Shown one piece after another: positions 1-19,275 of a stretch of 64,000 nt of DNA. Positions within the stretch are counted from its first letter, which is position 1, and every line of letters begins with the position of its first letter. Under the pieces are notes generated by a model. That model was not told the DNA's origin and made no database searches. It saw nothing but the letters and a program-made list of their open reading frames with translations. Source of the stretch: Blastocatellia bacterium (GTDB lineage Bacteria > Acidobacteriota > Blastocatellia > RBC074); assembly GCA_046331525.1 (NCBI GenBank), contig JAXLQQ010000020.1:178-64177 (forward strand). The letters run 5' to 3'. The position numbers and the translations under genes were made by a program.

Positions 1-789
1 GATTACATCGTGCTGGCGAATTAAATTTCAACAATCCACCAACAAAGAACAATTATAATTACAGAGAACGATGCTGCTATGCAGCGAAAGTTTTGATCGT
101 ACCACCTGTTACGCTCGTAATACAATAACTATTTGAGGAAGTTTTGACTAAACAGGGAACTTCCCCTCCCGGTCAAAAACCCTATTAAGGCTATTGTCAG
201 GCTTACTGCGGGGTGATTGCCTAATTTTTACTGATTATTTCTTGCTTACAAAAACGTAGGAAATTTACCATTCAAACCTAACATTGTCAAGTGGAAAAGT
301 TAATGTTCCTTTAGTCAATAAATCCCTGTGCTCTAACAGTTTAGATGAAGCTGGAAAGACCTGAACACTGCCATATTATTTGGAAGCTTGCGAAGGGTTT
401 GTGATGTGGTCTCCCCTTGATTGGATACCTGAATTCAGCAAATAGAAGCTGGGCGTAGGGGCGGAAGTTAAGCGTGTGACTGTTAACATACCTCACATTT
501 CTTTTTCCGCTGGTCAAAAGCGAAAACCCAATCCTGTCACCAACAATCGCGGATTGTAAAATTTTCCATGAAATGAATCACCAATTTTTTCCATATCTAC
601 ATGAAGGCTGAATTTGTGCCCACAAAGACAACCCATCTGAGATTCGCCCTTTCCAGCAAAGGCTGAAAGGTCAGTTAACAAATTAGTGCGGTGAAAATGA
701 GCAGCCCATTTCCTCACTGCCGGATGCAATAGACGCGGGAGATTGCCCGCCGTTCTCACAACCTGCTTGCCCACTCCCGCTGCTCACGC

Positions 790-1860
790 ATGTCAGGTAC
801 GTCTGCTTGCTGTATGTCCGTACAACCTCTGAATTCTCTTACTCTGCCCCACACGCTGTTGCCCCTTCCGGGACTCGTCTACCGGAGTGCTGCTCTGCAA
901 CAGGTCGCCGAGCAAATCTATCGGATCAAAGACCATCCCAGCATTGTTCTCGTCACCGGAGAATCCGGGACGGGCAAGGAACTTGTCGCGCGGGCGCTGC
1001 ATAAGCTCAGCCACCGCGCCAATCACCCTTTCGTTGCCTATAACTGTAGCGCCTTACCCATGCAATTGGCGGAGGCGGCATTGTTTGGGTATCGGCGCGG
1101 GGCCTTTACAGATGCAAAAGAAGACTCGCTGGGCGTGATTCGGGCTGCTGCCAACGGGACGTTGTTTCTGGACGAGATAGGAGAGTTGCCAGTGGAACTC
1201 CAACCGAAATTGCTGCGGTTTCTGGATCAGGGCGAAATCCATCCGCTCGGCGAACCACAGCCGCAACGGGTCAATGTCCGCATCGTGGCGGCAACGAATG
1301 CCGATCTGGAAGAGCGCGTGCAGGCTAAAACCTTTCGTGATGACCTCTACTATCGCTTGAATGTTTTCTCGATATGCCTGCCACCTTTACGAGAACGGGG
1401 GGCAGATATTGGAGTTCTGCTGGATCATTTTCTGCAACTGTACGGACAGCGGGCCGGGAAACCACAATTGCGGCTCAAACGAGAAGCCCGTACCGCTCTT
1501 TTGCAATACCACTATCCAGGGAATGTGCGCGAGTTGAGCAGTATCGTGCAAAGAATTGTGGTCTACGGTTCCAATCAGCAACGTATCAGCCGCGCCAACC
1601 TTGTCCAATATTGCCCGGAACTTGGGCGACTGACTGCGGGAGGAAAGGTTGTTGACTTGAAGTCCCTGCTTCCTGAACATCTTCCCATAGAACTGTCATT
1701 ACAAGAGGTCAGAGTAGCGTGGGGAGAAGCGTTGGAGCGCAAGCTCATCGCAGAAGCGTTGTGGCGACACGGCGGAAATGTGAAGCGGGCGGCGGCTGAT
1801 CTTGGCTGGGAACGTTCGACCTTACGCAATAAGCTCAAAGCCTACAAGCTTCTTGCCTAA
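790..1860 (+). CDS. Sigma-54-dependent transcriptional activator (bacterial enhancer-binding protein). It has only an AAA+ domain and a C-terminal Fis-type HTH, with no N-terminal sensor or receiver domain.
   Basis: Walker A GESGTGKE, the GAFTDA sigma-54 contact loop, an R-finger region and the C-terminal HTH GNVKRAAADLGWERSTLRNKLK. Only about 35 aa precede the AAA+ core. Confidence 0.9.
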   Translation: MSGTSACCMSVQPLNSLTLPHTLLPLPGLVYRSAALQQVAEQIYRIKDHPSIVLVTGESGTGKELVARALHKLSHRANHPFVAYNCSALPMQLAEAALFGYRRGAFTDAKEDSLGVIRAAANGTLFLDEIGELPVELQPKLLRFLDQGEIHPLGEPQPQRVNVRIVAATNADLEERVQAKTFRDDLYYRLNVFSICLPPLRERGADIGVLLDHFLQLYGQRAGKPQLRLKREARTALLQYHYPGNVRELSSIVQRIVVYGSNQQRISRANLVQYCPELGRLTAGGKVVDLKSLLPEHLPIELSLQEVRVAWGEALERKLIAEALWRHGGNVKRAAADLGWERSTLRNKLKAYKLLA

Positions 1861-1994
1861 TGCAACATTTGCTCAAGCGGATACTAGGTAGACACGCTTT
1901 GTTTTTCGTGTAGTCGGTACTCAATCTGTTGAAAACGTAAATAAAAGAGAAGACAGAGAGTTAGGGGGCTTACGTGAATTGGTGCTTGGTTTTG

Positions 1995-2013
1995 GTGGTC
2001 AATGATTGACCAC
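1995..2013. promoter_or_regulatory. Perfect 9-1-9 palindrome GTGGTCAATgATTGACCAC, a candidate activator binding site upstream of RHS-1
   Basis: Exact reverse-complement symmetry read from the sequence. It lies about 110 nt upstream of a -24/-12-like element at 2123-2138 (TGGCTCGCCAGTTGAC). Confidence 0.3.
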
Positions 2014-2382
2014 TTTGCATGAATTTAAGAATCACTTTCCGCTTGCGAAAGCATCGTTAAAACTTTTTATCTTCCTTGCTTGCCATAAGTTAAAACAAAA
2101 ATCCAGACCAGGGGACAAACCGTGGCTCGCCAGTTGACTAGCAGAGGGGCGGAGTCATCACGAAATCTGACAACATTGCCAAGCTGACCCCCCATCAATC
2201 GGAGCGGCTTCAGCAAAAATGCTTCAATCAAACCTGTTTTGGTGAAGCTGCCAACGCATAACACGTTGCATCACGTAACGGCAGAGAGCCTGTCGCACGG
2301 TTCCACAATTTCTTTGAGACCAGTTCGTTGCCTATTTCGGGGAAAGGCCCGTTGTCGCTTCCCTTTTTTACCAGAGGTTTCC

Positions 2383-5300
2383 ATGAGAAAGATTACCCAT
2401 TGCTTACTTACCCCGGCCCAAACATTGATTGTAAAAATGTCTTGTTTAGGACACGCCTTGAACACCACAATGCGCCGCTTATCGGGATGGCGGGAAAACA
2501 AAATGCACGCTGTTGCCCCGCAACATGCGAGGCATATTCATTGGCAAAGCATATCTCTATGGCGACGCGCGATCAGCCTTATGCTGTGCGTAGTGCTACT
2601 GGCAAATCCGATTCTAGCCATGCCACAAGGAGTCCTTATTCTCAGCAATGAATTCCGTTATAGCTTGGCCTTTTATTGGTATAACAGCGGACTGGCTGCT
2701 AAGTTCAATGCGTGGTTTCAGAAACCTGCGGCGGTGCAGGATACAAGAGGCTGGGATGGCAAGGGCGCACCGCCGAATACTCCCCCAGAACCCAGCGTGC
2801 AAGAGAAGCAAGCCAATCGTGATGTCAAAGTCTCCAAAATAGAAATTTCGCCGCGTGACGTGACAATTCATACCGGTGAGAAAGCGGTCTTCGCCGCAGT
2901 TGCCTACGACAAAGACGGTAACTTAGTTCCAGGCGTAAAATTTATCTGGGATGGCTCTGATGAAGACAGGAAACGCAAGATGAGCGTGTCGCCACGAGGC
3001 ATTTTTACCTCTCCGGTGCCGGGCAACTACAAAGTCACAGTCGAAGCCTTAAATAAAAGAGATAGCGTCAAGGTAACGGTCATCGGCGAGAAACTTAACC
3101 CCAAAGACCCCGGCGTAAAAGGCGAGCCGATTTCCACCTCTGACAAACCGAAAGCGAAAATCTCGCGCAACACAATAGAGACACCAATGCAACGCATTGG
3201 CGGCGCGGCTCCCACTGTGCCGGACGAGTCGAACTTGCTCAAAAAAACATCTGCAACAGAACTAGCGCAGGTTGGGCGTAAAGGAACACGGTATGCGGCA
3301 AAACCAATGGCAGTCACCGCCGCCGTGCAAGGTGGTAATTACGATTACTATCAGTGGAATGGTGGCAATTACACCGAGGCCGATGATCCAGGACGCGAAC
3401 GTGGCGATATGGCCGGTCACGCAGCAGATGGCGGTGCAGGCAGTGGTAACTTCCAATTCTCTGCCCCCATCACGGGTTTGGACGGACGCGGAATAGACCT
3501 TAATCTGGTGCTCAACTATAACTCGCGCATTTGGCATAAATCCGGTTCGGATATGTATTTTGACATTGACGGCGATTACATTCCCGGCTGGACGTTTGGT
3601 TTTGGGCGAATCGTCACGGCAGGGAATGGTTATATGCTCATTGAGGCGGATGGTACTCGCCACAGTTATGGCGGCAATCCGTGGAGCTACTCGGCTCCCA
3701 ATACATCATTACAAGGGTTTGATGGTTACACCAAAGATGGTTCCTACATCAATTACTGGGCGCGCGGCTATCGTCCGCAATATGGTAGCTACATTCTGGA
3801 CGCATGGGCGAAATTACCGAACGGCACGAAGATCATCTACGGCGCATCGGCCAATCTCGGCGCTTATCCCACGCAAATTACCGATGCCAACGGCAATTAC
3901 ATCACGATTACCTACGTCAATAATCAAGGGCCGCAGATTGACACGATTACCGATACCTTGGGACGGCAAATCAAATTCAAATACGTGGATTTGCTAGTTG
4001 GCAGTGTCTACAAAAAAGTGGTCGTCGCAGTGACGGTACCGGGCTTCAATGGCGGGGCAGATCGTGTTATTGCACGCTATGCTTATGATACCAAGAGTTT
4101 GACAGATTCCGGTTCCAATTACGGCTTTAGCGGTGTTACCTGTCGGGTGCAAAATGCCACGATTGCACGACTCAAAGCGATTTACTATCCCGCCACGAAT
4201 ACAGGCTATTGGTTTGGGGATTCAGATTCCTATTCCACCTACGGTATGCTCCGCAAAATTAGCGAACGACGCGGAATGGCATGCAGCAACCCAGATGTGA
4301 CAACTGCGGAGGCGAATATCACGAATTCGGGAGTGATGTCACGCGAAGTAGTCTATGAGCATACGTCACAGGCTGGTTATAGCAACACCTCCGGCCCTTT
4401 GACGGATGTACCGACCTATAACCAAACGACGGAAGATTGGTCGGGGCGGCATGCAAGCGCCCCCCACAACATTCCAAAGCCTGTCACTGAATACAACGTT
4501 ACAACCAATAGCAGCACCATCACGACTCGAATCACTCGTCGTGATACTAGCTCTTCTGATGGCCTGACAACAGAGCAAATCACCGACAACAACACAAGTT
4601 CGCAAACCTATGGGTTATTGTTGGAAGACACCACCTTTCCCACTAAAACCAGTTCGACCGTCTTGCACAAATCCAAAGTTTATTGGGAAGTTCCTGACCT
4701 TAACACCTACCCCTCACATTACGGTGCGCCACGTCCGAATCATACTGAAGTGACAGATGAGCGCGGGCAAATGACCTCGACTTATTACACCTACGGTGTC
4801 AATTATAATCAGGTGGCGGATGTACGTGAATATGGCTACAACAATCAGTTTCTACGCCGCACCCACACCGACTACATTAACACCACGCCTTATATTGGTT
4901 ATTGGAGTAACAACCCCTACGGTAGTTATTTCGGACGCCACATTTACAGTTTGGTGAGCGCCGTCTCGGTCTATGCCAGTGAGAATGATGATTCAGTGCG
5001 TGTCTCGCGCACCGAATATCAATACGATCAACAGAGCGGGCAGCAGCTTTACAATACGCCTGATGTGCCTCAGCATGAATTAGTTTCTGACCCCTATGAT
5101 CCGGGCTATCAGATTTGTGATTGGGTCTGGAATGGCTGGGATTATGACTACATTTGTAACACTTATTACACCTATGACTCCGGCACAGATAAACGCGGTA
5201 ACATAACGAGTGTCAAACGGTACGCTGATGCGTTGAATGTGCCAAACGATCCGCTTGCCTTAACCGAAACGCGCAATTACGACATCTGCGGCAATTTAAT

Positions 5301-8300
5301 TACGGCGGCTCCGGCCTGCTGCGAACAAACGGTTTACACCTATTCTATTGATACTAAATATACGTGGCCTTCATCGGTTACGCACGGGTTAATTTCCGAC
5401 GCATCTCAGCGTAACACAATTAGCACGGTCTACGACTTAAACACTGGCTTAGTAACAACAGCCTATAATCCGAATGGTCTTTACTCCACAACCACATATA
5501 ACGCCTCAACTTTGCGCCCAACTTTTGAGTATGGATTCAGGTCGTCTTCCAGTCAGCCAGTGGGTTACACCTATCACGAGTATTATGACAACACCAGCAA
5601 TAATGACATGGCGATTATAGATTTCAGTTATGAATCTGGCCTCAATGGGGCGAGTTGGGCAAATCGCGTGGACAAATATCTGGACGGGAAAGGGCGCGTT
5701 GGGGCAGAAATAGGTTTCACTGCCGGATATGAAATGGATGTCGTGGCGACTATTTATGATCAATTCGGGCGCGTGAAAACGCAATCACGACCCTATCGGT
5801 TAAACACAAGTTGGGGGCTTGTTGGGACGCAGGAGTGGACAAATTTTAACTATGACGTTCAGGATCGTATTACCAGCGAAGTCGCGCCAGATGGTAGCAT
5901 CAGTTATCGCTATTACAATGAAACGTCCTATCCGAGTGGGGCTACTCCTGGTGGGCAGACTATCCGTCTTAAAGATGCCTGGGGGCGAGAACGCTGGGCG
6001 CGAAGTGATGAACAAAATCGCTTAGTTGAAGTTGTAGAACCTGCACCAAATGGTGATGGTACAGTGGCAAGCAACGGCTTAATAACAACTTACTCTTATA
6101 ACACGCTCGGCAACTTGACAGGGGTCAATCAAGGCGGGCAAACCCGTAGTTTCAAATTCGACAGTTTGGGGCGCATGACGAATCAAAAGCTGGCTGAGCG
6201 TCAGGCAACGCTGACTGATAGCGGCGGCGATGGCAGCACTTGGAGCGATTATTTCAAATATGACAATCGCGGCAATCTGATTCAGCGCATAGATGCGCGG
6301 CGTGTTAAAACGAACTTTGATTATGGTAGTGACCCCCTTAATCGCCTACAAAGCGTGAGTTATGATAAGTCCAATGCACTGGATGCAACAAATATCAAAG
6401 ACGCTGCGACGGTGTCCTATACCTATGAAAATACATCAAGCAAAGATAAGACGCGATTACTTAGCATAAGTTTAACTGCTGTCAATGGGTTGCCTACGGA
6501 TTTTGGTAATCAATCCTTCGGTTATGACAGCGAAGGTCGTTTGAGTAGTCTAACGCAAAAATATGGCAACAGTCGGAACGCAACGACCAGTTACGAATAT
6601 GACACACTGGGGCGTACAAAGAAAATTTTCTATCCGGCTCAGCAAGGGCAAACCGGCAATCCGATCCGCGAAGGTACCCTGACTTATGATCTAGCCAGCC
6701 GGTCTCAATCACTAACTTATAACAGCACGGCGATGGCGAATAATCCGGTTTACAATCCCTCTAGCCAAACAACACAGCTTGATGTCGGCGGTGCAATTCA
6801 GGAGCAATATACCTTCGATCCACAAACCGGTCTGCTCACCAATCAGAAAGTTAAGCAAGGCTCAACTACACACATGGATTTGAGTTATGACTACAACAAC
6901 CTCTACACGGGAACAGGACAGAATTCAACATGGAAAACAGGCCAATTAAGCAAGATCGTTGACAATAAAAATAATGAGCGTAATAGGCAATTTACCTATG
7001 ACAAATTGAGTAGGTTAAAGGAGGCGAAAGGTGGCTCTTCTTTCACCCTGTGGAGTCAAACATATAGCTATGATAATTGGGGAAATCGCACGGGCGTGGC
7101 GGGTAGTGGATTTGCAGCGACCATTCCAGCAAATACTATCGCAATCGGCTCTGATGGGTTGACAAGCGTCACCTACGATACTGCGACAAACCGCATTACG
7201 AGTGGTAGTTTCAGCTACGATGCAGCAGGCAACCAAACCCAAGCAAATGAGAATGGGTTGGTAAATAATTATAAATACGACACCGCAGGCAGATTAGCTG
7301 AAGTTACGAATAATGCTGGCACACATACCTATGCCTATGGGACAAGCAATCAGCGGTTGCAAAGTGTAGAAGGAAGCAACACGACTTTGTACACATGGGA
7401 AGGCGGAAGTGTCATCGCGGAATACAATGGTGCGGGCACTGGGATGACCTGGACAAAGAGCTATGTATATTTAGGCGCAAGATTGTTGGCAGTCGAGTCT
7501 CCGCTTAGTGTGAATTCTACCGAGATTCAGTATCAGCATCCAGATCGGTTAGGGACGAGGCTTGTGACGAACACAGCGGGCGGAATTGTAAGTGAGAATA
7601 TCGGTTTGCCTTTTGGGAATATCATCGCAGGCGAGTCTACAAATATCGGGGGGAGCGCAACGAAGAAACGGTTTACGACCTATGATCGTAGTGACACAAC
7701 AACCTTGGATTATGCGGTAAATCGCAATTATTCAGCAGCACAGGGACGCTTCACACAGGTTGACCCAATTGGGATCAACGCCTCTTCTTTGGAAAACCCA
7801 CAATCGCTAAATTTATACGCATACGTCGGAAATGATCCTATTAATCGCACCGATCCTGATGGCCTATTCTGGAAGGAAATTGGAAACTTCTTCAAAAAGG
7901 TTGGGAAATTTTTCAGCAAAGTGGGAGAAGTAATAGGCCGTGTTCTCAACAATCGGTGGGTACGAATAGGCGTATTCTTATTAGGCTTTTTTATGCCTGG
8001 GCTAAAGCTTATCAGTGCTGCCTTGGCGAAAGTCGTAAATGTTGCCCTCAAGGTTTATAATTTCGTTGCCGATGTAGGCGCACAATTGCAACTCTACGGG
8101 ATGCTCTTCCAAGGGAAATTTAAGGAGCTAGGATTAAGCTTAGCGAATGGGCTGGTAGGAAATGCTATCTCCAATTTGATTGATCCGATAATCGGGGGGG
8201 TGCAAAAAGCTTTATTCGATCCGAAATTTGACGAACTAGCCGACCTCTTTGTCGGGGGATGGAAAGGGTTCAAGCAGGCTTGGCAAAATCTTGGAAATTC

Positions 8301-8670
8301 TTTTGGGCAAAAGGTCTTCAATCTTATGTTTGGTTATGGGAATTATGGGGGGGCTGGACATCCTCCTGATGGTGCATTCGACCCTCAAGCCGGTCAGTTT
8401 AATCCTGATACCCCTGGAATTGATAGTGTTGATAATAGGTTTAAGGGACACGATAAGCGGTATCGAACTGCTGGCTACAGCAAGTTAAAAGCCGATGTCA
8501 TTTTAGTAGGAGGTCTCTTCTTTTCGTCTCCAAGACTGCATGCTTCAGACATCGCGTTTTCAGGACAATTTAGAGGCCGACCAGGCTCTGGAAGTGTGTA
8601 TAAATTTGTAGCTACTGCTGCCTTTACGGGAATGGCGATTGGGAGAGGCACTGCGAAAGCCTTCAAATAA
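2383..8670 (+). CDS. RHS/YD-repeat polymorphic toxin 1: N-terminal hydrophobic anchor or signal, Big_2-like Ig domain, YD-repeat shell, RHS core, PLA2-like C-terminal tip
   Basis: Numerous YD-type repeats (YxYDxxGNL/R, e.g. YSYNTLGNLT, FKYDNRGNLI, YEYDTLGR). Core end motif YVGNDPINRTDPDGL at 7852-7866. Ig-like segment around 2827-3085. The ATG at 2383 has a GAGG 5 nt upstream; the ATG at 2503 is an alternative start just before the hydrophobic segment LMLCVVLLANPILA. Confidence 0.9.
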   Translation: MRKITHCLLTPAQTLIVKMSCLGHALNTTMRRLSGWRENKMHAVAPQHARHIHWQSISLWRRAISLMLCVVLLANPILAMPQGVLILSNEFRYSLAFYWYNSGLAAKFNAWFQKPAAVQDTRGWDGKGAPPNTPPEPSVQEKQANRDVKVSKIEISPRDVTIHTGEKAVFAAVAYDKDGNLVPGVKFIWDGSDEDRKRKMSVSPRGIFTSPVPGNYKVTVEALNKRDSVKVTVIGEKLNPKDPGVKGEPISTSDKPKAKISRNTIETPMQRIGGAAPTVPDESNLLKKTSATELAQVGRKGTRYAAKPMAVTAAVQGGNYDYYQWNGGNYTEADDPGRERGDMAGHAADGGAGSGNFQFSAPITGLDGRGIDLNLVLNYNSRIWHKSGSDMYFDIDGDYIPGWTFGFGRIVTAGNGYMLIEADGTRHSYGGNPWSYSAPNTSLQGFDGYTKDGSYINYWARGYRPQYGSYILDAWAKLPNGTKIIYGASANLGAYPTQITDANGNYITITYVNNQGPQIDTITDTLGRQIKFKYVDLLVGSVYKKVVVAVTVPGFNGGADRVIARYAYDTKSLTDSGSNYGFSGVTCRVQNATIARLKAIYYPATNTGYWFGDSDSYSTYGMLRKISERRGMACSNPDVTTAEANITNSGVMSREVVYEHTSQAGYSNTSGPLTDVPTYNQTTEDWSGRHASAPHNIPKPVTEYNVTTNSSTITTRITRRDTSSSDGLTTEQITDNNTSSQTYGLLLEDTTFPTKTSSTVLHKSKVYWEVPDLNTYPSHYGAPRPNHTEVTDERGQMTSTYYTYGVNYNQVADVREYGYNNQFLRRTHTDYINTTPYIGYWSNNPYGSYFGRHIYSLVSAVSVYASENDDSVRVSRTEYQYDQQSGQQLYNTPDVPQHELVSDPYDPGYQICDWVWNGWDYDYICNTYYTYDSGTDKRGNITSVKRYADALNVPNDPLALTETRNYDICGNLITAAPACCEQTVYTYSIDTKYTWPSSVTHGLISDASQRNTISTVYDLNTGLVTTAYNPNGLYSTTTYNASTLRPTFEYGFRSSSSQPVGYTYHEYYDNTSNNDMAIIDFSYESGLNGASWANRVDKYLDGKGRVGAEIGFTAGYEMDVVATIYDQFGRVKTQSRPYRLNTSWGLVGTQEWTNFNYDVQDRITSEVAPDGSISYRYYNETSYPSGATPGGQTIRLKDAWGRERWARSDEQNRLVEVVEPAPNGDGTVASNGLITTYSYNTLGNLTGVNQGGQTRSFKFDSLGRMTNQKLAERQATLTDSGGDGSTWSDYFKYDNRGNLIQRIDARRVKTNFDYGSDPLNRLQSVSYDKSNALDATNIKDAATVSYTYENTSSKDKTRLLSISLTAVNGLPTDFGNQSFGYDSEGRLSSLTQKYGNSRNATTSYEYDTLGRTKKIFYPAQQGQTGNPIREGTLTYDLASRSQSLTYNSTAMANNPVYNPSSQTTQLDVGGAIQEQYTFDPQTGLLTNQKVKQGSTTHMDLSYDYNNLYTGTGQNSTWKTGQLSKIVDNKNNERNRQFTYDKLSRLKEAKGGSSFTLWSQTYSYDNWGNRTGVAGSGFAATIPANTIAIGSDGLTSVTYDTATNRITSGSFSYDAAGNQTQANENGLVNNYKYDTAGRLAEVTNNAGTHTYAYGTSNQRLQSVEGSNTTLYTWEGGSVIAEYNGAGTGMTWTKSYVYLGARLLAVESPLSVNSTEIQYQHPDRLGTRLVTNTAGGIVSENIGLPFGNIIAGESTNIGGSATKKRFTTYDRSDTTTLDYAVNRNYSAAQGRFTQVDPIGINASSLENPQSLNLYAYVGNDPINRTDPDGLFWKEIGNFFKKVGKFFSKVGEVIGRVLNNRWVRIGVFLLGFFMPGLKLISAALAKVVNVALKVYNFVADVGAQLQLYGMLFQGKFKELGLSLANGLVGNAISNLIDPIIGGVQKALFDPKFDELADLFVGGWKGFKQAWQNLGNSFGQKVFNLMFGYGNYGGAGHPPDGAFDPQAGQFNPDTPGIDSVDNRFKGHDKRYRTAGYSKLKADVILVGGLFFSSPRLHASDIAFSGQFRGRPGSGSVYKFVATAAFTGMAIGRGTAKAFK

Positions 8671-8907: not shown

Positions 8908-10236
8908 ATGCAGTATTCAATTAGTATTGTCCTTTCTTGCCTAGTGATATTTTGTTTTATGCCGATGAGGGAAAAGTCATCAGTTATACGGAATTCTGAT
9001 TCAGATGCTACTTTGCCCTTTATGCAGCAACATCGAGAAAACACGTCAGATCAGATCACCTTGCGCCAAACTCTTCCAGACTCTTCGGAAAATCTTGAGG
9101 CCGCCTATATGCGACTGGGATTTAGCCCTGATGGGAGGACGCTCATCACAGGGCCAGCCCATAAGGAGGCAAAAGTATGGGATGTATTGTCTGGAAAGTT
9201 AGTGGTGGCTTTGAAGGGGAAAAGCACGGGTTCTGTAGCCAGCTATAGCCCGGACGGAAAATATGTCATTACTGCACCAGGAAAAGACCTTGTAATATGG
9301 AATGCTCAAACGGGAGAGTTAATCAAAAAAATATCGGCTGTCGGAGGTATCCAGGCGGTGGGTGGGATAATAAAGGTTCAATATACTGCGAATGGTAGTT
9401 ACCTTCTTGGTACAGATGGCACTTGTCGTGGGACAGTTGTTGATCTAACGGCAATGAGTAAAATTAAAGAGATCATGCCGAAGAGTTTTCTCGGTAAGAA
9501 TAACTATGAAAATGGAGCATTAAGCCTTAGCCCTGACGGTCAGACTGTACTTGGCGTTTGTGGTGGCAACTCAAAGATTAGGCTTTATGCGATTCAGACA
9601 GGAAAGGAACTCAAAACTTTTCCGGCACACCAAGGAACATACGCGGATGGAACGGATTTCTACGAAACGCACAGTGTCATGTTTCTTCCAGACGGAAGAC
9701 GCTTTGTGACATTAGGAATCGGAGGAATGAAGCTGTGGGATGTAGCAACAGGGCAGCAATTAACCAACTTTGCCAAGCATCGCAGCACAATCTACGATGT
9801 ATTTTTGAGTCCTGATACGAAGTTGTTAGGCGCGGTCAGCCGCGATGGAACGGCGATTCTTTGGGATTGGGAGCAGGGAAAAGAGAAACATACTTTTTCT
9901 GGCTATAAAAGTTTTGTTTCTCGACTTGCTTTTAGTTCAGATGGGAAGATTATAGCAGCAGGCGGAAAAGAGGTAAGAGCCTGGGATGTAGAAACAGGTA
10001 GGTTATTAACCTCAATTGATAATAAAGAGCAAGAAGTTAAAGAACTTATATTTACCAAGCAAGGAGAATGGTTAATTGTCTCCGACGAAAAGAAAGTTAC
10101 TGTTTGGAATCCACAAAGCGGTGTCTTGGTTAGAGAGTTGGGTAATGCGCGTGCGCCTATAGCTATTAGTGCTGATGGAAAAATATTGGCAACACGCGGG
10201 ATGCAAAAAGATGTTTTACTATGGGATTTACAATAA
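8908..10236 (+). CDS. WD40 beta-propeller repeat protein with an N-terminal hydrophobic anchor or signal
   Basis: Repeated blade-end motifs KVWDV, VIWNA, KLWDV, ILWDW, RAWDV, TVWNP, LLWDL. N-terminus is ISIVLSCLVIFCF. GAGGGA RBS before the ATG. The gene is visibly AT-rich. Confidence 0.85.
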   Translation: MQYSISIVLSCLVIFCFMPMREKSSVIRNSDSDATLPFMQQHRENTSDQITLRQTLPDSSENLEAAYMRLGFSPDGRTLITGPAHKEAKVWDVLSGKLVVALKGKSTGSVASYSPDGKYVITAPGKDLVIWNAQTGELIKKISAVGGIQAVGGIIKVQYTANGSYLLGTDGTCRGTVVDLTAMSKIKEIMPKSFLGKNNYENGALSLSPDGQTVLGVCGGNSKIRLYAIQTGKELKTFPAHQGTYADGTDFYETHSVMFLPDGRRFVTLGIGGMKLWDVATGQQLTNFAKHRSTIYDVFLSPDTKLLGAVSRDGTAILWDWEQGKEKHTFSGYKSFVSRLAFSSDGKIIAAGGKEVRAWDVETGRLLTSIDNKEQEVKELIFTKQGEWLIVSDEKKVTVWNPQSGVLVRELGNARAPIAISADGKILATRGMQKDVLLWDLQ

Positions 10237-10363
10237 ACCTGTTTAGCTATAAGAGTTGTAGACTTGCCCGTGTCTGAAATCAACTAGACTTTTCCTCTGC
10301 CTCTACACGTCTCACATAAAATAATCGGTGGGAGTAGTGTGCGCAGACCAAGAGAGGTTATCT

Positions 10364-10789
10364 ATGTCCCTCACGATGACGACCAGCCCTAAGCTGCTCC
10401 GACATGCACTTTCATCCTCTAAAAGCAGCCAAAACTTATCTGCTCCTTTGCTCGTTCCGCGTGATTGGCGAGTGCAAAAAGTCATCAAGCGATTGCTCAA
10501 TAATTTACACCAGCCGCATTACCGCGACAATCTGGCAGAAACAGTGAGTCTTTGTCCAAAACAATTGACGCGGGTGTTTCGGCAGCAGACTGGCTTCACG
10601 CCACTGCAATATCTGAAGCGGTTGCGTTTGGAAGAGGCGAAAGACCTGTTGGCAGACTTCACGCTGAGTATTCAGGAAGTGTTACAGCAAGTTGGCTATG
10701 AAAATGCAAGTCAGTTTAGTGCTGATTTTAAGCACGCTTTTGGTCGCACGCCGCGCCAATACCGACAATTAGTGCTGAGCCATCAGTGA
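10364..10789 (+). CDS. AraC/XylS-family transcriptional regulator with essentially only the HTH domain
   Basis: Dual HTH signature: LAETVSLCPKQLTRVFRQQTGFTPLQYLKRLRLEEAKDLL and GYENASQFSADFKHAFGRTPRQYR. There is no room for a ligand-binding domain. Confidence 0.8.
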   Translation: MSLTMTTSPKLLRHALSSSKSSQNLSAPLLVPRDWRVQKVIKRLLNNLHQPHYRDNLAETVSLCPKQLTRVFRQQTGFTPLQYLKRLRLEEAKDLLADFTLSIQEVLQQVGYENASQFSADFKHAFGRTPRQYRQLVLSHQ

Positions 10790-11038: not shown

Positions 11039-11509
11039 ATGCCATTTTCATTTCGACGTTTGTCTAAAACACAATTGATTGCGCTGGGGGTTATAGCTGT
11101 ACTGGGGATTGCCGTCTTTGGGGTTAGCGAGAAACTCAAATTGGCCAATACCCCTGCTCCTGTTGCACGAGCGCGGCAGATAGAGCCTCCACAGAATCAG
11201 TCTCAACCACCCCGCTCCAAGCTGGAATCGGAAGTGATTGTGCTGCGAGAGCGCGGCTTTGAGCCTTTTGAAATTACTCGTCCGACAGGAACCTTTGCTT
11301 TAACCGTGGACACTCGAATTGGGGGCAGAAATGCTGATCTTGTTTTGAGTCAAGTTGCAGGCGAGAAAGTTCGTGAGGTGAAGCTACCAGTCGGCAAGAG
11401 AGCTTGGAGAGAACAAATCAATCTGCCACCAGGAAGATATATCTTGACGGTTGCCAACCAACCGAATGCGATTTGCAAGATTACGATCACACCGCCGCGC
11501 CCCTCTTAA
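11039..11509 (+). CDS. Hypothetical membrane-anchored protein upstream of RHS-2
   Basis: The N-terminal TM segment LIALGVIAVLGIAVFGV is followed by a P/Q-rich linker and a roughly 100-aa beta-rich segment. No family was recognised. Confidence 0.55.
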   Translation: MPFSFRRLSKTQLIALGVIAVLGIAVFGVSEKLKLANTPAPVARARQIEPPQNQSQPPRSKLESEVIVLRERGFEPFEITRPTGTFALTVDTRIGGRNADLVLSQVAGEKVREVKLPVGKRAWREQINLPPGRYILTVANQPNAICKITITPPRPS

Positions 11510-11579
11510 CGTTGGCAGCAAGGTCTAAGATAACCTCACTTTCCTAATGTAACGCTGATTCATCTACTTGGAGTTTTTT

Positions 11580-14500
11580 ATGTTGCTCTTCAGCTATTTT
11601 GAAAAATACGGCACTGTTGTTCGTCTGAAAACTATAGGACTCATTCTTCTCTGTTTATTTGGCGTTACAGACCACACCTACGCGCAATATGATAAAACCG
11701 CCGGCGTCACACCGAGCTTACTGACTCCGGGTACACCTGCGGGAACATACCCCTTAGAAGGATTCGATACAGTAAATTTATACAATGGGAACATGAACTT
11801 CAGTCTGCCCCTCCTCACGATCAAAGGCCGTGGCAGTGTCAGTCACACGATTAACTTGCGAATTGAGCAGCGTTGGCAATTAGATGGTTATTTCGCTTCG
11901 CAAGGGATTTACACGCCGATGGCACATTGGTGGACTGGGATTGAACCTGGGTATGGGCCGGGCACAATGGAGGGCAGGTATCTCAATGACCCCTGTGGTG
12001 ATCCAGTCTATAGCGGACAGCAAATCACGCGACTCTACTTCACCACGCCTGATGGAACCGAGATTGAGTTTCGTGATCAAGAGAGTCGGGGCGAAACAAA
12101 ACTTGGCAACTGTTATCCGCATGGCATCTATAGCCCTACTTTCAACCGCAAAAAAATATTTAATGCAGTGGACGGTTCAGCCGCGACGTTTATTTCCGAT
12201 ACGGACATTTACGACTGGAATGGGATTGGCGACACATATATTTTTCCAACCGGAAACTTGATGTGGCGTGATGGCACTATGTACCGCATAGTAAATGGTC
12301 AGGTGAGTTGGATGCGGGATCGTAATGGCAATCGTTTGGAATGTAATGGGAATGTATTTAAGGATTCTTTGAATCGTGAAGTCACAATTACCACGCACCC
12401 TCAAAGCCCTGCCCCAAACTATTATGATAAAATTACCTACCGGGGGAATGATGGTGCCATCCGGGAAATTAAAATTTGGTATAAACCCTTGGAAGATATT
12501 TTACGGGCCGATTATCAGGTTGGGACGGCTCCTTATACGCGAACCTACGATCAATTATTTGGCTTGGGAAGTTCCCAGACTCGGCATAATCCGTTGAAAG
12601 CGGCGTCGGTCGAATTGCCGAATGGAAAAAGTTACCAGTTTTATTACAATCCTTATGGCGAGTTAGCGCGTGTAGTATTACCTACTGGCGGTGCTTACGA
12701 ATATGACTGGATGGGTTATATTAGTGGCAATCCTGACATCATCCGGCGCGTGGCAGAAAAACGAGTCTATCCGACAGGTGGGCAGGGAACAGCTTTCTCG
12801 GTGAAAACGATTTTTTCCGATAATCAGACTCCAACCGGGACAAATTCCTGGTTCTTCACCGAACAGCGCGATGCTGCCAACAATTTGCTGGCCCACAGCA
12901 AGCATTACTTTTACTATAATTCCGTTAGTTCCACATACCTTTGGACTCCGTTTCAAAACAGGCCATACGACGAAGGACGCGAAAATAAAACAGAGGTTTA
13001 CAACACCTCTGGCAGCAACGTGTCGAACATGCTGCGAGAAACAAGTCAAGTGTGGACAGCTAGTTTTTGGGGGGCGGCTCCTTCGTCGGACACGCGCATC
13101 AGTGAGAAGGTAACAACGTTATCTGACATCAGTCCCAATCTCGTCTCAAAAGAGACTTACAGTTATGACGCCTATAACAATAAGACGGACATCTATGAAT
13201 ACAATTTTGGAGCGGGAAATTATGGAACTCTTATCCGGCGCACGCATACAGACTATGTGACTACCAATAATAGTGCGAATTATGCGACGGCTACCAATAT
13301 TCACTTGCGCGGGCTACCAAGCGTGATACAGGTCTTTGATGCTAACAATATCAAGCGGGCCGAATCGCTCTTAGAATACGATAACTATAATCAAAGTAGT
13401 TCGGATGTCTTCCATGCTGCACTTATCCCGCGCAACAATATCAGTGGGCTGGATAGTATCTTCACGACTAGCTATTACAACCGTGGTAACGTGACAAAAA
13501 CGACGCAAAATCTTCTGGATGTGAATGGAAACGTCACCAGTTCCATCTACAATCATGCCCAATACGACATTGCCGGAAATGTGGTGAAAACGGTTGATCC
13601 ACGCAGCACTACCTCGAATCTTATTACCACAACATTTGAATTCGATGATCGGTTTGGCTATCCCAATGGCGAAGCACAGTCCAACAGTACGCCGCCCGCT
13701 CCTGGCTCGACCTGGCTGAATGGGCAAACGACCTACGCTTTTCCCACCAAAGTCACCAATGCGCTCGGACATATTGCCTACACGCAGGTAGATTATTTCC
13801 TCGGCAAACCCGTTGACACCGAAGACGCGAATAATATCAAGGGAAGTTTGTACTATATTGACGCCTTTGACCGTCCGACCAAAGGTATTCGGGCAGTCGG
13901 CACGGCGCTGCAAAATCAAACGCTCATCACTTACGACGATACGAACCGAATAGTTACGACCACGACGGACAAAGATGCGAACACCGATGGCGCACTGCAA
14001 AGCAAAGCCTTTTATGACGGCTTAGGACGGCTCTATCGGAAGGCCACGTATGAAGGAACGATTCCGGGCTATAGTCAGGCTCAGTGGGCTATTGTGGAAA
14101 CGCACTTTGATGCGCTGGGCCGGGTCTATCGCCGTAGTAACCCTTTCCGCGATGCCTCTCCGATTGTGGCTTTGCCAGGCAATGCGGAATGGACAACTTC
14201 AACTTTTGATGCGCTCAGTCGCGTCCTCACCGTTACTGCGCCAGACAATACGGTGGCGACAACCAGTTACATAGGCAATGAGGTCTTAGCGATTGATCAA
14301 GCGGGCAAACAGCGCAAGAGTGAATCCGATGCGGTTGGAAGACTCGTGAAGGTCTGGGAAGCGCCGAACGATCCAACCAATTTCAACTATCTTACCACCT
14401 ATGCGTATGACACCTTGGATAATCTGACAACTGTTACCCAGGGCGCACAAACGCGCACCTTTGTCTATGATTCGCTCAAGCGTTTGAAACAGGTAACTAA

Positions 14501-17366
14501 TCCTGAGAGCGGGACAACAACTTACACCTACGACAATAATTTCAATTTACTTACTAAGTTAGATGCAAACAGTATCACGACGACCTATGCGTATGATGCG
14601 TTGAATCGGAATACGACTACCAATTATTCCAATACTGCGATCACTCCTGATCTGACGCGCAGCTATGATGGTGCCACCACTGGCAAAGGCCAATACTGGG
14701 AATCCTACGCTGGGGGAGATTTTACGAATGGCAGCAATGTTGAGTACCAGAAGATCAATGCCTACGATGTGCTGGGACGCCCTTTATCTGTCACGCAAAG
14801 ACAAAAGCTGAATGGCACCTGGAGCGCGAGTTTGTACACCACGGCACGCACCTACAATCTGGCTGGCAATGTGCTTTCACAAACCTACCCGTCCGGCAAA
14901 GTCGTGAATTACAGCTACGATCAGGCAGCCCGCCTGACGAGCTTTACCGGGCAATTAGGAGGTATCACAGGGCCGGGTAACACGGATATTAGTTATGCAA
15001 ATAACATCAAATACAACGCGCGTAGCCAGATGATCCGTGAGACTTTTGGCACGACGACAAATCTTTATCATCGCAACTACTACAATCGGCGGGGGCAACT
15101 GTTTGACGCCCGGCTCGGCACGGATAGCAACACAGCTTACGATGTTGAGAATCCAGTGGTTTGGCGTTGGGCAACGGGAACATGGAATCGTGGAGCGATC
15201 CGGCTGAATTACAGTAGCACGGGAAATGATTATGAGGATTATACGACCACCAATGGCGCGTTGGTGAACAACAATGGCAATGTGTATCGCATGGATCATT
15301 TCATTCCCGATAACGACAGCGTGACCTCCTGGAAAATGAATGCCAATTACTATAATTATGACGCGCTTAATCGTTTGCAGTGGGTGCAGGAAAATCAGGT
15401 CAATAATGGCGCAGAAACGGTAGCTTATAAACAAACCAATTCGTATGATCGCTGGGGCAATCGCACGATAGATCAAAGCAATACCTGGGCGATGGATGGA
15501 AATGTTTGGGTGGAGGATAGTCTTCCAAGCAGTGCGGTAGCAGTAGGTGATAACGACGGTTGGAATTGGGTGACCGCCGCTCCGACACCGTTCTCCGGGT
15601 CGTCAAGTCACCAATCCAGCACTGTCGCTGGAGTCCACCAACATTACTTTTATGGAGCAACAAATACGCTGACGCTTACGGCCAGTGATAGTCTGTATGC
15701 GTGGGTTTATCTTGACCCGACGAACCCGCCCACAGAGGTGATGTTGCAATGGAACAACGGCGACTGGGAGCATCGCGCCTATTGGGGGGCTGATCAGATT
15801 GGCTGGGGAGTGAACAATACCAACAGCCGTCGTTATGTGGGAGCGTTACCAGCAACCGGTGGTTGGGTGCGCTTGGAAGTCCCGGCTTCCGCCGTGGGCT
15901 TAGTCGGCAGCACCCTGAATGGAATGGCCTTCACTTTATATGGCGGTAAAGCAACGTGGGATCGGGCCGGCAAGACTGCTCTTATAGGGGGCGGAATTAA
16001 CAAAGAGAAGTACACCGTAGACGCGACAAATAACCGCTTCACGGAACTCACCTATTATGCGTCAGGGGCTGTCAAGGGCGAAAAGACGACTGGGACGGGA
16101 CGGATGGAGTATCAATACGATGCCGAAAATCGTGTCATCGCTTACGGGTATAATATTGTTACGACCCCCGGCAATCCGGTGACCAGTCGCTATTTCTATG
16201 ATGCCGATGGTAATCGCACACGAAAGATCGTGAGTGGCACGGAAACCTGGTTTGTTTATGGATTGGACGGTGAATTGGTGGCAGAGTACAATGCCAACGG
16301 CGCGGTGGGAAGCCCGCAGAAAGAATACGGCTACCGTAGCGGACAATTGTTAGTGGTGTATGACACCACAGAAACGACGGCGGACAAGAAGCTACAATGG
16401 ATGGTGACGGATCACCTCGGAACGCCGCGTATGGTCATTGACAAGACAGGTAGCCTGAGTGGAGTAAAACGACACGATTACCTCCCCTTCGGCGAAGAGC
16501 TTGGAGCAGGTGTGGGATTACGAAGCGCGGGAAACGGCTACACGGCGGATCAAGTGCGACAGAAGTTTACAGGGTATGAGCGGGATACGGAGACCGGACT
16601 GGATTATGCGCAGGCGCGGATGTATGCGAATGTGCAGGGGCGGTTTACTAGCCCTGATCCACTACTTGAAAGTGGGCGGCCCGAAGACGCACAATCTTGG
16701 AATCGGTACGCATACGCCCGCAACAACCCGCTCGCTTATATCGACCCGACAGGACTGAATTATGAGCATCTCAAGGGGCGGCAAAAAGATTTGATTGATC
16801 AATGGGCTGCTGCTCAGAATAAGGCGAACAAAACCAATATTAGTGCAGAAGCGATGTACAATGGACTTACCGAATCACAGAGAAGTACCTATGAATCCGT
16901 GACGCACGCGATGATGAACACCCAGCTCAAAGATGATAAAGGGAATTCCCTCGGCAATGCGTTGGATGCTGTCCAAAGCATAACTTCTATTGCTGGCGAC
17001 TCCAAAGATGGCGGTGCCCCGAAAGACGCGAAATCGGATCAACAGTTCCGAGTGTATGTAGAAATAAAGAGCGGCAAAGAGTTGATTGCTGGCTCCGTAC
17101 AGTTCGATAGCGGGCGTAATAAGGGTGGGCTTCACGAGGGCTATCCTTTGAGCTTCCGGCTCAAGGGAGGAGTGCCAAGTCTTCAGGTCTCAATGAGCGA
17201 GGACTTTAGGCGGGGAGATAATGATGTAGATTATCTTCCGAAATGGCACCCTTTGCATCTTACCAAGGCTAATTCTGACATTCGCGATGGCAATAACTAC
17301 AAGAACCATACCAAACGTTTTGGGCCAGGCTTGGTAAACTGGTGGGAGAAAAAGAAGAAGAAATGA
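11580..17366 (+). CDS. RHS/YD-repeat polymorphic toxin 2 with signal peptide, non-YD insertion and an unrecognised C-terminal toxin tip
   Basis: Signal-like N-terminus (LILLCLFGVTDHTYAQ). Many YD repeats (YAYDTLDNLT, FVYDSLKRL, YTYDNNFNLL, YAYDALNR). Core end motif YARNNPLAYIDPTGL at 16743-16757. GGAG lies 6 nt before the ATG at 11580. Confidence 0.9.
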   Translation: MLLFSYFEKYGTVVRLKTIGLILLCLFGVTDHTYAQYDKTAGVTPSLLTPGTPAGTYPLEGFDTVNLYNGNMNFSLPLLTIKGRGSVSHTINLRIEQRWQLDGYFASQGIYTPMAHWWTGIEPGYGPGTMEGRYLNDPCGDPVYSGQQITRLYFTTPDGTEIEFRDQESRGETKLGNCYPHGIYSPTFNRKKIFNAVDGSAATFISDTDIYDWNGIGDTYIFPTGNLMWRDGTMYRIVNGQVSWMRDRNGNRLECNGNVFKDSLNREVTITTHPQSPAPNYYDKITYRGNDGAIREIKIWYKPLEDILRADYQVGTAPYTRTYDQLFGLGSSQTRHNPLKAASVELPNGKSYQFYYNPYGELARVVLPTGGAYEYDWMGYISGNPDIIRRVAEKRVYPTGGQGTAFSVKTIFSDNQTPTGTNSWFFTEQRDAANNLLAHSKHYFYYNSVSSTYLWTPFQNRPYDEGRENKTEVYNTSGSNVSNMLRETSQVWTASFWGAAPSSDTRISEKVTTLSDISPNLVSKETYSYDAYNNKTDIYEYNFGAGNYGTLIRRTHTDYVTTNNSANYATATNIHLRGLPSVIQVFDANNIKRAESLLEYDNYNQSSSDVFHAALIPRNNISGLDSIFTTSYYNRGNVTKTTQNLLDVNGNVTSSIYNHAQYDIAGNVVKTVDPRSTTSNLITTTFEFDDRFGYPNGEAQSNSTPPAPGSTWLNGQTTYAFPTKVTNALGHIAYTQVDYFLGKPVDTEDANNIKGSLYYIDAFDRPTKGIRAVGTALQNQTLITYDDTNRIVTTTTDKDANTDGALQSKAFYDGLGRLYRKATYEGTIPGYSQAQWAIVETHFDALGRVYRRSNPFRDASPIVALPGNAEWTTSTFDALSRVLTVTAPDNTVATTSYIGNEVLAIDQAGKQRKSESDAVGRLVKVWEAPNDPTNFNYLTTYAYDTLDNLTTVTQGAQTRTFVYDSLKRLKQVTNPESGTTTYTYDNNFNLLTKLDANSITTTYAYDALNRNTTTNYSNTAITPDLTRSYDGATTGKGQYWESYAGGDFTNGSNVEYQKINAYDVLGRPLSVTQRQKLNGTWSASLYTTARTYNLAGNVLSQTYPSGKVVNYSYDQAARLTSFTGQLGGITGPGNTDISYANNIKYNARSQMIRETFGTTTNLYHRNYYNRRGQLFDARLGTDSNTAYDVENPVVWRWATGTWNRGAIRLNYSSTGNDYEDYTTTNGALVNNNGNVYRMDHFIPDNDSVTSWKMNANYYNYDALNRLQWVQENQVNNGAETVAYKQTNSYDRWGNRTIDQSNTWAMDGNVWVEDSLPSSAVAVGDNDGWNWVTAAPTPFSGSSSHQSSTVAGVHQHYFYGATNTLTLTASDSLYAWVYLDPTNPPTEVMLQWNNGDWEHRAYWGADQIGWGVNNTNSRRYVGALPATGGWVRLEVPASAVGLVGSTLNGMAFTLYGGKATWDRAGKTALIGGGINKEKYTVDATNNRFTELTYYASGAVKGEKTTGTGRMEYQYDAENRVIAYGYNIVTTPGNPVTSRYFYDADGNRTRKIVSGTETWFVYGLDGELVAEYNANGAVGSPQKEYGYRSGQLLVVYDTTETTADKKLQWMVTDHLGTPRMVIDKTGSLSGVKRHDYLPFGEELGAGVGLRSAGNGYTADQVRQKFTGYERDTETGLDYAQARMYANVQGRFTSPDPLLESGRPEDAQSWNRYAYARNNPLAYIDPTGLNYEHLKGRQKDLIDQWAAAQNKANKTNISAEAMYNGLTESQRSTYESVTHAMMNTQLKDDKGNSLGNALDAVQSITSIAGDSKDGGAPKDAKSDQQFRVYVEIKSGKELIAGSVQFDSGRNKGGLHEGYPLSFRLKGGVPSLQVSMSEDFRRGDNDVDYLPKWHPLHLTKANSDIRDGNNYKNHTKRFGPGLVNWWEKKKKK

Positions 17367-17935
17367 TTAAACTGATTCTTGAGAGGCTTGTTTTACTGTT
17401 GCTAATGTCGGGCGTTGTGGTTCCAGCGACGGCGCAGAATAATGCGCTGAAGAAGGCTGACCAGCAGGCAGAAGTCGCCGTGCGATCCTTTCTTAACATC
17501 TGGTTGGTTGACAGAGATGTGAAGCGTGCCACTGGCTACCTCAGCACTGATAAGAACTTGTGTGCGCCCACAGAAATGCCGGACTCTTTTCAGCTAACTG
17601 CAAGATCGACGGCTCTGACCACGCTCAGGAAAAACCTTCGTCGTCCGCTGAAATGGATGTCTAGGCGGAAATCACTGTCAGCAGCGATTTCCGCTTTTCC
17701 CTCTGATCGCCAATCAGTAGATGGTGGCGTTTTGGTGAATAACAGCCCTGAATTCAGACTGTTTCGAGTTACCGAGAGGGTCTTAAATAATTGTAAGGCA
17801 CCGGTGAATAGTCCTCTATATGAGGCTGTATTCACCTTCGGGTTGGGGCCAGATCGCGGTGCCGGGATGTACTTCGTATTTCATAAAGAACGAGAACAAT
17901 GGAGAATTGTTTTGTACGATTGGCTTGCGCAGTAG
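17363..17935 (+). CDS. Secreted NTF2-like protein, candidate immunity protein for the RHS-2 tip
   Basis: Its ATG overlaps the RHS-2 TGA in an ATGA overlap at 17363-17366. Signal peptide is MIKLILERLVLLLLMSGVVVPATAQ. The segment AEVAVRSFLNIWLVDRDVKRATGYLS resembles NTF2/SnoaL-like folds. Confidence 0.65.
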   Translation: MIKLILERLVLLLLMSGVVVPATAQNNALKKADQQAEVAVRSFLNIWLVDRDVKRATGYLSTDKNLCAPTEMPDSFQLTARSTALTTLRKNLRRPLKWMSRRKSLSAAISAFPSDRQSVDGGVLVNNSPEFRLFRVTERVLNNCKAPVNSPLYEAVFTFGLGPDRGAGMYFVFHKEREQWRIVLYDWLAQ

Positions 17936-18330: not shown

Positions 18331-19275
18331 TCAAAACGCTATCCGCAGTTGTCTGCGATTCGGGAATCCCTCGACATACTCCGAGACCCAAGCGGACAGC
18401 GGCTCCGCCGAATGCCCAAGATAGTCTTTGCACATCGGCAGAATCCGTTTCTTCTCGTCCAGGTAGAGCTTGTCCAAGAACGCAAAGAAACTCTGCGGTG
18501 GATTAGCGAGAACCGTGCAAGCTTCGGTTAGCCCTGCGTGGAAAACGTGATTCTGTTTCTTCAGCGCGAGCGTCCATTTCTTTTGGGCAAGCAGGTAGAG
18601 TGAAGCGGCGAAGAACGTGGTGTCGAGAAACGCTTCAAAATTGAGATTTGTCAGAAACGAGCCGTCTTTCTGTTGTTGCCCCCATCCACAGAACGCCATC
18701 ACCTGTTGGCTGACCAATAGTTCGTTCGCTTCCGTCACCGTCTGCCTCTCCATCTGCGTCCAATCACAACCGCAGGCACAAATCGTCAACGACGTGCGAT
18801 CCCAATAGAGACGCTTCCGACACATCGGACATCTGTCCATCAACAGCAACTGATGCTTCAGGCAAACCGTCACATGTGCCAAGTCCCAATACCAGCGGTG
18901 ATGTGGGCTTTCGGCCAGACACGCAGGGCAGAATTTTGGGTACTTGAATTTGATATATCTGACGGGGATTCGGGCCACCCCAAGTGTCACCCATTGTCCA
19001 TCATCCTGATAGCAGATTCGCTGAAATCTGGCTTCGTCATACCCTGTTGCCTGCGCTAAACCTGACAGATCAGGGCAACAACGGGAAGAAACGCGGCCCT
19101 CTGTCGGTTCTATCGTCCAATGCAACGCCGCCTCAATTTCCTTGATCCCCGCGTACCCATTGTCTTCGGCGAGGCGCAGCAAATAGCCCATCAAAGTTTC
19201 GTCAGGAGCAAGATGGGGAATGACGAGGAAGCGGGCGGCAGGGCTGCTTTGCGCAGAACTCGAACTACTGGTCAT
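18331..19275 (-). CDS. tniQ: TniQ/TnsD-family (Tn7-like transposition targeting) protein; orphan, and possibly C-terminally truncated by the adjacent IS remnant
   Basis: N-terminal TniQ signature PHLAPDETLMGYLLRLAEDNGY and zinc-ribbon pattern CPACL..x..CLKH..x..CPMC. No tnsA/B/C gene is present nearby. Confidence 0.8.
   Translation of the reverse strand: MTSSSSSAQSSPAARFLVIPHLAPDETLMGYLLRLAEDNGYAGIKEIEAALHWTIEPTEGRVSSRCCPDLSGLAQATGYDEARFQRICYQDDGQWVTLGVARIPVRYIKFKYPKFCPACLAESPHHRWYWDLAHVTVCLKHQLLLMDRCPMCRKRLYWDRTSLTICACGCDWTQMERQTVTEANELLVSQQVMAFCGWGQQQKDGSFLTNLNFEAFLDTTFFAASLYLLAQKKWTLALKKQNHVFHAGLTEACTVLANPPQSFFAFLDKLYLDEKKRILPMCKDYLGHSAEPLSAWVSEYVEGFPNRRQLRIAF

Follow-up and report, generated by a model that had tools for sequence, protein, structure and literature searches.

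An RHS protein of a Blastocatellia bacterium carries a putative envelope-directed toxin tip, and the tip and its presumed immunity protein are homologous to the two parts of a fused acidobacterial protein family

Polymorphic toxins that combine a Sec signal with RHS/YD repeats form the "T2SS/Sec-dependent" class (T2SS, type II secretion system; Zhang et al. 2012, PMC3482391). Immunity proteins of the families Imm-NTF2 and Imm-NTF2-2 pair with Tox-NucA and Tox-JAB-2 (PMC3482391). We analysed a 64,000-nucleotide stretch of a Blastocatellia genome (contig JAXLQQ010000020.1; hereafter "the window"), and in particular its gene RHS-2 and the gene for a 190-aa protein that overlaps the RHS-2 stop codon. 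RHS-2 is like the Sec-dependent, WapA-like RHS/YD toxins in having a signal peptide, a YD shell, a DPxGL core end and a variable C-terminal toxin domain (the tip, here a putative toxin), followed by an overlapping immunity gene, and orphan C-terminal (CT) and immunity cassettes occur in both cases. It is unlike them in that its tip falls outside all described Tox/Ntox families and lacks a structural neighbour, its immunity protein is exported, and both partners have a fused homologue that is encoded on the chromosome and conserved in the same phylum. We consider it fairly probable, on the basis of sequence comparison, that RHS-2 is a Sec-exported RHS/YD toxin with an envelope-acting tip and a periplasmic immunity protein, and that the pair originated when a self-partnered envelope protein was split.

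The RHS-2 reading frame comprises 1932 codons on the forward strand (11568-17366) with a likely ATG start at 11580; a second gene caller also predicted a protein of 1928 aa from this ATG (gene at 11580-17366, +). The N-terminus, RLKTIGLILLCLFGVTDHTYA followed by Q, is signal-peptide-like (hydropathy maximum 2.7), and a Sec-type signal peptide is predicted at 11580-11684 (+). RHS/YD repeats were detected with Pfam RHS_repeat (E 8.4e-20) and TIGR01643 (E 3.7e-10) and by a precomputed match to TEN_YD-shell, and an RHS-associated core with TIGR03696 (E 1.3e-18, residues 1654-1730). Unlike the Rhs effectors that type VI secretion systems (T6SS) deliver, RHS-2 has no PAAR or VgrG domain in Pfam and NCBIfam scans. 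The core end (GRFTSPDP...YIDPTGL; 16638-16757, +) contains a DPTGL motif of the autoproteolysis type at 16743-16757. The core terminates in NNPLAYIDPTGL, the last base of which is 16757, in agreement with the PxxxxDPxGL cleavage motif, and the variable tip follows directly. The YD shell also contains a Trp-rich insert of ~160 aa (15495-15974) shortly 5' of the core, which has no Pfam match.

The tip is the 202 aa after DPTGL (16758-17363, +). It includes QFRVYVEIKSG, GGLHEGYPLSFRLKGG and DVDYLPKWHPLHLTKANSDIRDG and ends in KKKKK, just as in an earlier account made from the letters of the window (the sequence-only reading), which could assign the tip to no toxin family. Our searches agreed with that account. 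Pfam gave nothing at E<0.03, the sole match being RsbRD_N (E 0.033, under its cut-off); NCBIfam, PADLOC and PHROGs gave no match at E<=1; and against PDB sequences the best E value was 0.039 for the tip alone, while a 40-sequence profile gave 0 matches. The sub-threshold matches to RsbRD_N, a globin-like sensor, recurred at E 0.02-0.03 on the three N-terminal helices (16764-16973 in the window, and the N-domains of six family members) and are probably spurious. For AlphaFold2 modelling, a 9-sequence alignment was unusable (predicted local distance difference test, pLDDT, 49), and 40 diverse family members were used instead; the resulting model had pLDDT 93.1 and a predicted TM score (pTM) of 0.91. 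It is a mixed alpha/beta structure in which three N-terminal helices are followed by a mixed sheet of ~eight strands and by C-terminal helices. Foldseek searches with this model found nothing at E<=0.001; E was 0.46 at best against PDB (TM <=0.23 for the matches listed) and 0.14 against BFVD. The fold is predicted to be new within the scope of PDB and BFVD. Two candidate resemblances were dropped. A ColM-like motif (D-x-Y-D...H-R) differs in residue order from D-x-D-Y...H of the tip, and Foldseek drew a blank against PDB, which presumably contains ColM structures; matches to CYTH/LolA-like folds all had E>0.4.

Homologues of the tip were found down to E 1e-76 and homologues of the downstream open reading frame (ORF) down to E 1e-104, so neither is a chance feature. 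The nearest tip homologues were RHS C-terminal fragments with 60-67% identity. The idea that the tip is novel held with respect to described families; however, the tip is not isolated, as it belongs to a large uncharacterised family of exported domains. A profile search with the tip family over 1.84 billion representatives of 50% identity clusters revealed 518 representatives at E<=1e-3, of which 137 reached E<=1e-30, mostly from Acidobacteriota; the family comprises at least 518 such clusters, in most of which the domain is fused to the "immunity" domain. Most of the top 150 representatives were proteins of 600-670 aa with the tip-like domain (N-domain) at about residues 10-240. In local hidden Markov model (HMM) searches, ~100 of these 150 had C-domains after the N-domain (one in 34, two in 66), the chain running from a signal peptide through the N-domain to one or two C-domains. 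Tip residues 1-196 aligned with residues 39-231 of one such protein, P0016, at 41% identity (BLASTP, E 3e-42). A hydrophobic N-terminal segment was present in 69 of 76 full-length fused members, indicating that the fused proteins are exported. As judged by homology, these comparisons showed that the tip is a complete copy of the domain that normally forms the exported N-domain of a conserved, mostly acidobacterial protein.

The fused proteins have no Pfam or NCBIfam annotation, and a third, word-indexed search with the 40-sequence profile returned 22 proteins, none of them from the fused family. Among GTDB species representatives we confirmed 371 loci for this family. The best 80 of the 371 were almost all from Acidobacteriota (Acidobacteriaceae, Bryobacteraceae, Solibacteraceae, Vicinamibacterales and Blastocatellales), the phylum of the present host; the genomes include that of cultured strain KBS 83, and some hold two copies. 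The gene lies in ordinary chromosomal settings, for example yidC-jag-gene-folD in Acidobacteriaceae. No conserved functional neighbour was found in the 80 genome loci, only the lineage-specific yidC-jag, folD and an Omp85-like gene. In the fused proteins there is no Lys-rich tail, and the chain runs on into a linker; RHS tips usually end Lys-rich (KKK to KKKKK; e.g. loci L001, L088, L091 and L092). Some members (P0038, P0042, P0051, P0086 and P0109; genes encoding 950-1190 aa in L006-L085) have an N-terminal extension of ~550 aa with the motif PHENRRELRGL...WLNH, for which Pfam, NCBIfam and PDB gave no match.

The second partner is encoded immediately downstream. The RHS-2 stop codon TGA (17364-17366) overlaps the ATG (17363-17365) of the 190-aa ORF, an ATGA arrangement already recognized in the sequence-only reading. 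The gene caller placed the start of this ORF at GTG 17342; ATG 17363 is favoured because two homologues begin at the equivalent Met, one of them behind a quite different upstream gene. The ORF at 17363-17935 (+) thus encodes an exported protein of 190 aa that we presume to be the cognate immunity protein in view of the ATGA overlap, its C-domain homology and its co-inheritance with the tip. Its N-terminus, MIKLILERLVLLLLMSGVVVPATA followed by QNN, has a 12-residue hydropathy maximum of 3.0, and the predicted signal peptide (17363-17434, +; by eye and hydropathy) is in line with the earlier proposal that the protein is secreted. The Lys-rich tail of RHS-2 is encoded by AAA/AAG codons (17348-17362), which form a purine-rich stretch right before the immunity start codon; the role of the tail may lie in the protein, in the initiation of translation, or in both.

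The mature part of the 190-aa protein and the C-terminal domains of the fused family are homologues. BLASTP against P0016 gave matches to residues 470-636 (E 8e-11) and residues 248-430 (E 2e-5), and in HMM comparisons the immunity proteins scored somewhat higher against C-domain 1 than against C-domain 2 (66.8 vs 55.2 bits). By this homology, the 190-aa protein was shown to be a free-standing exported copy of the C-domain of the fused family. Two Cys are invariant across C-domains and immunity proteins and are both retained here (codons at 17561 and 17792), as expected for an extracytoplasmic disulfide. The invariant C-domain residues (F, W, C, C, W) are structural, consistent with a binding module.

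The sequence-only reading had proposed that this protein is NTF2/SnoaL-like. No Pfam family was matched at E<=1 by the 190-aa protein, so that it is a member of neither Imm-NTF2 nor Imm-NTF2-2, nor by 29 C-domain relatives, apart from one SnoaL_3 match. Sub-threshold matches did recur, however: SnoaL_3 (E 0.006 and 0.15), DUF4440 (in 3 members), DUF4864 and DUF4019, and the CaMKII association domain in PDB (E about 2). These families belong to the NTF2-like clan. An NTF2-like fold of the immunity protein is weakly indicated by these matches and is likely but unproven; membership in the known NTF2-type immunity families was not borne out.

Tip and downstream gene behave as a unit. RHS-type proteins with this tip fell in several separate 50%-identity clusters (P0002-4, P0020, P0028, P0046, P0091 and P0114, the last a 2751-aa protein from an Anaerolineae metagenome-assembled genome), and by nearest-neighbour identity the RHS tips were mostly, not strictly, clustered. 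The junction between RHS and tip was always exactly DPxGL followed by (N/D)YE.L, which suggests that the whole mature N-domain was grafted onto RHS. Wherever DNA downstream of the tip was available, the tip was followed or overlapped by an ORF that is homologous to the C-domain and encodes a signal peptide or lipobox. The pairing, which the sequence-only reading had proposed to examine across genomes, was observed in five RHS lineages: the window (identical in L086 and L087); L088; L001/L002/L091; L092; and L107/L121. The L088 immunity protein is 70% identical to that of the window, again with an ATGA overlap, and those of L001, L091 and L107 carry lipoboxes. L001 contains an orphan RHS-CT array (170-3166): an RHS end with a DSDGRE junction, a different unannotated tip and its 167-aa lipoprotein are followed by an RHS core fragment bearing the present tip family and its immunity gene. 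In L089 (502-1065), an immunity gene 92% identical to that of the window begins within the last part of a RecD-like helicase gene; as it directly follows that gene without a tip, it is an orphan immunity gene. Immunity proteins diverged ~2-fold faster than tips (identity 32% vs 64%, 87% vs 97%, and 26% vs 50%). Tip and immunity gene move as one cassette, and the window holds only one copy each of the N-domain and C-domain.

The covalent linkage of N- and C-domain homologues in the fused proteins is strong comparative evidence that the tip and the immunity protein bind each other, and the ancestor of the immunity protein was probably the domain that partnered the toxin domain in cis. We propose that the tip, once freed from the shell, would be an enzyme whose substrate is an envelope or periplasmic component of the target cell. 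The immunity protein would reside in the periplasm of the producing cell, probably with a disulfide bond and, in some lineages, a lipid anchor, and would neutralise an incoming tip by direct binding, reusing the cis interface between C-domain and N-domain of the fused proteins. The pair was probably born by fission of a self-partnered envelope protein, the N-domain being grafted onto RHS. It was previously suggested that a secreted immunity protein implies a toxin acting outside the cytoplasm; such a site of action is the best inference from the exported partner, the invariant Cys and the exported parent domain, and the activity itself is putative. A further step is more tentative. The fused proteins may be self-inhibited envelope enzymes whose C-domains mask the active face of the N-domain, so that the split yielded a weapon together with an immunity protein from the cis-inhibitor; we regard this as possible but doubtful.

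The covalent linkage of N- and C-domains in most family members shows that they work together, which need not mean inhibition, and the invariant C-domain residues would fit either kind of binding module. The downstream protein could thus be an obligatory partner (activator or chaperone), with the tip inactive until the two re-associate in trans and rebuild the two-part unit of the fused family. We consider this unlikely. An immunity protein fits better than a cofactor with the orphan copy of the downstream gene without a tip in L089, with the much faster divergence of this gene than of the tip, and with its canonical immunity position within orphan cassettes.

Alternatively, the tip could be non-antagonistic cargo: the RHS shell would export or display a normal envelope enzyme for the producer itself, for remodelling or nutrient acquisition, and the downstream protein would be its regulator. 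It is true that Acidobacteriota carry this domain family as a conserved gene on the chromosome (for example between yidC-jag and folD in Acidobacteriaceae), and that proteins of the P0007 type export the domain without a partner. However, the location of the tip directly behind DPxGL, the existence of CT cassettes and of an immunity gene as orphans, the occurrence in several RHS clusters and the fast-evolving partner are hallmarks of a polymorphic toxin cassette and make the cargo explanation improbable. Action of the tip in the target cytoplasm (e.g. on nucleic acids or nucleotides), with the exported location of its partner incidental or mispredicted, is highly improbable: most characterised RHS tips do act in the cytoplasm and the alternating acidic and basic residues on the beta-strands could bind phosphates, but in each of the five lineages the partner begins with a hydrophobic, signal-like segment or bears a lipobox, the C-domain has two invariant Cys, and the parent N-domain is itself exported.

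The window tip retains every family-invariant polar residue. Fifteen polar positions are kept across the family and in 11-14 of 14 RHS tips: Q96, R98, H126, R134, Q143, S145, D154, D156, D158, Y159, H167, N172, S173, D174 and H184. In the tip model, conserved residues alternate on neighbouring strands (QFRVY, NYR, PSxQxS, DxDxDY) and continue on the following loop and helix, a pattern that in the model appears typical of an enzyme active face able to bind metal or phosphate. The catalytic surface would be the polar face of the beta-sheet, formed by R98, R134, Q143, S145 and the D154-x-D156-x-D158 strand, with H126, H167, N172-S173-D174 and H184 close by. Our best guess, of low confidence, is that the tip is a putative metal-dependent hydrolase or transferase that acts on a cell-wall precursor, lipid or polysaccharide.

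Several points weigh against the toxin-immunity reading. The strongest is provided by the standalone secreted proteins of the P0007 type (P0007 and P0008; L005 2673-8966 and L004 8001-8984), which have a divergent N-domain and no C-domain gene nearby; export of the domain without a partner indicates that it is not necessarily harmful to the producer. Nor is toxicity obvious for a domain found, within the same phylum, in a conserved normal envelope protein. Fold and sequence relatives of the tip (Foldseek against PDB and BFVD, and the PDB profile) gave no clue to activity. No secretion-system genes, T6SS included, were found among the window ORFs scanned, a subset of all, and a Sec-exported RHS protein would still have to cross the outer membrane to reach a target. 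Signal peptides were assessed by eye and hydropathy alone. As a separate observation on the L005 locus, its standalone N-domain gene lies directly 3' of a gene with an FGE-sulfatase domain and two caspase (Peptidase_C14)-Sel1 genes.

The window is chromosomal, with a dcw cluster (ftsZ, ftsA, murC, murD, murF and a penicillin-binding protein gene) at 28.9-44.4 kb. Its homoserine dehydrogenase shares a cluster at >=90% identity with proteins of Blastocatellia metagenome-assembled genomes, which places the host in Acidobacteriota; exact look-ups of FtsZ and seven other proteins of the window gave no match. The GC content of the RHS island is 47-49%, vs 55% for the dcw genes, and a lone tniQ gene (18331-19275, -) lies directly after the immunity gene; the low-GC island and tniQ suggest mobile or horizontally acquired DNA. 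The neighbours scanned were a sigma-54 activator, a WD40 protein, an AraC regulator, TniQ, ComEC and the dcw genes. Promoter and terminator scans were at background level. Upstream of RHS-2, an AraC-type regulator gene (10328-10789) precedes a small gene for a membrane-anchored protein of 156 aa (11039-11509, +), whose link to the system is unproven. The suggestion that this protein is an accessory factor gained no evidence: it matched no family in Pfam, NCBIfam, PADLOC or PHROGs, was found in the same strain only, and has no counterpart upstream of RHS-1, so that such a role is neither supported nor refuted. RHS-1 itself (2239-8670) carries its DPDGL motif at 7852-7866. The 267-aa tip beyond this motif abounds in Gly and hydrophobic residues, has no Pfam match and looks membrane-active. 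The gene after it (8908-10236) encodes a WD40 beta-propeller with a hydrophobic N-terminus, which would be an unusual candidate immunity protein.

The RHS-2 pair would add to the polymorphic-toxin repertoire a domain with a predicted new fold, probably envelope-directed, from Acidobacteriota, a phylum that is dominant in soil and poorly studied. With "toxin" and "immunity" fused in hundreds of conserved proteins, it offers a model for a toxin-immunity pair born from one housekeeping protein, and a first functional handle on a large unannotated family of conserved acidobacterial secreted proteins. If the fused proteins are self-inhibited enzymes, the immunity protein would derive from a pre-existing intramolecular partner, which would document such a route to immunity, and the fused family (at least 518 clusters, predicted new fold) would be a new class of regulated cell-envelope enzymes.

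Comparison with other described systems places the locus as follows. Like the periplasmic effectors (T6SS Tae/Tai, Tge/Tgi and Tle/Tli pairs, and ColM-type toxins that degrade lipid II), the RHS-2 pair includes an immunity protein that bears a signal peptide or lipobox, a feature that implies the periplasm as the site of neutralisation. Unlike the toxins of those systems, the tip resembles amidase, muramidase, lipase or ColM catalytic domains neither in sequence nor in fold (best E 0.46 in PDB). The 190-aa protein resembles Imm-NTF2 and Imm-NTF2-2 in being a small alpha+beta immunity protein, possibly with an NTF2-like fold (predicted), but it differs from them in lacking a Pfam match, in being exported rather than cytoplasmic, in its toxin partner and in its two conserved Cys. 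Single-chain toxin-antitoxin fusions are represented by EzeT and by the fused toxSAS CapRel, in which a toxic and a neutralising domain occur in one chain or in two genes depending on the lineage; both are cytoplasmic toxin-antitoxin or defence modules. In the present case, by contrast, the fused form is exported, conserved and chromosomal, the split form rides an RHS shell, and autoinhibition in the fused form is hypothetical. The kind of system is already known; what is new is the predicted fold, the exported immunity protein, and the tie of the split pair to a large unannotated fused family.

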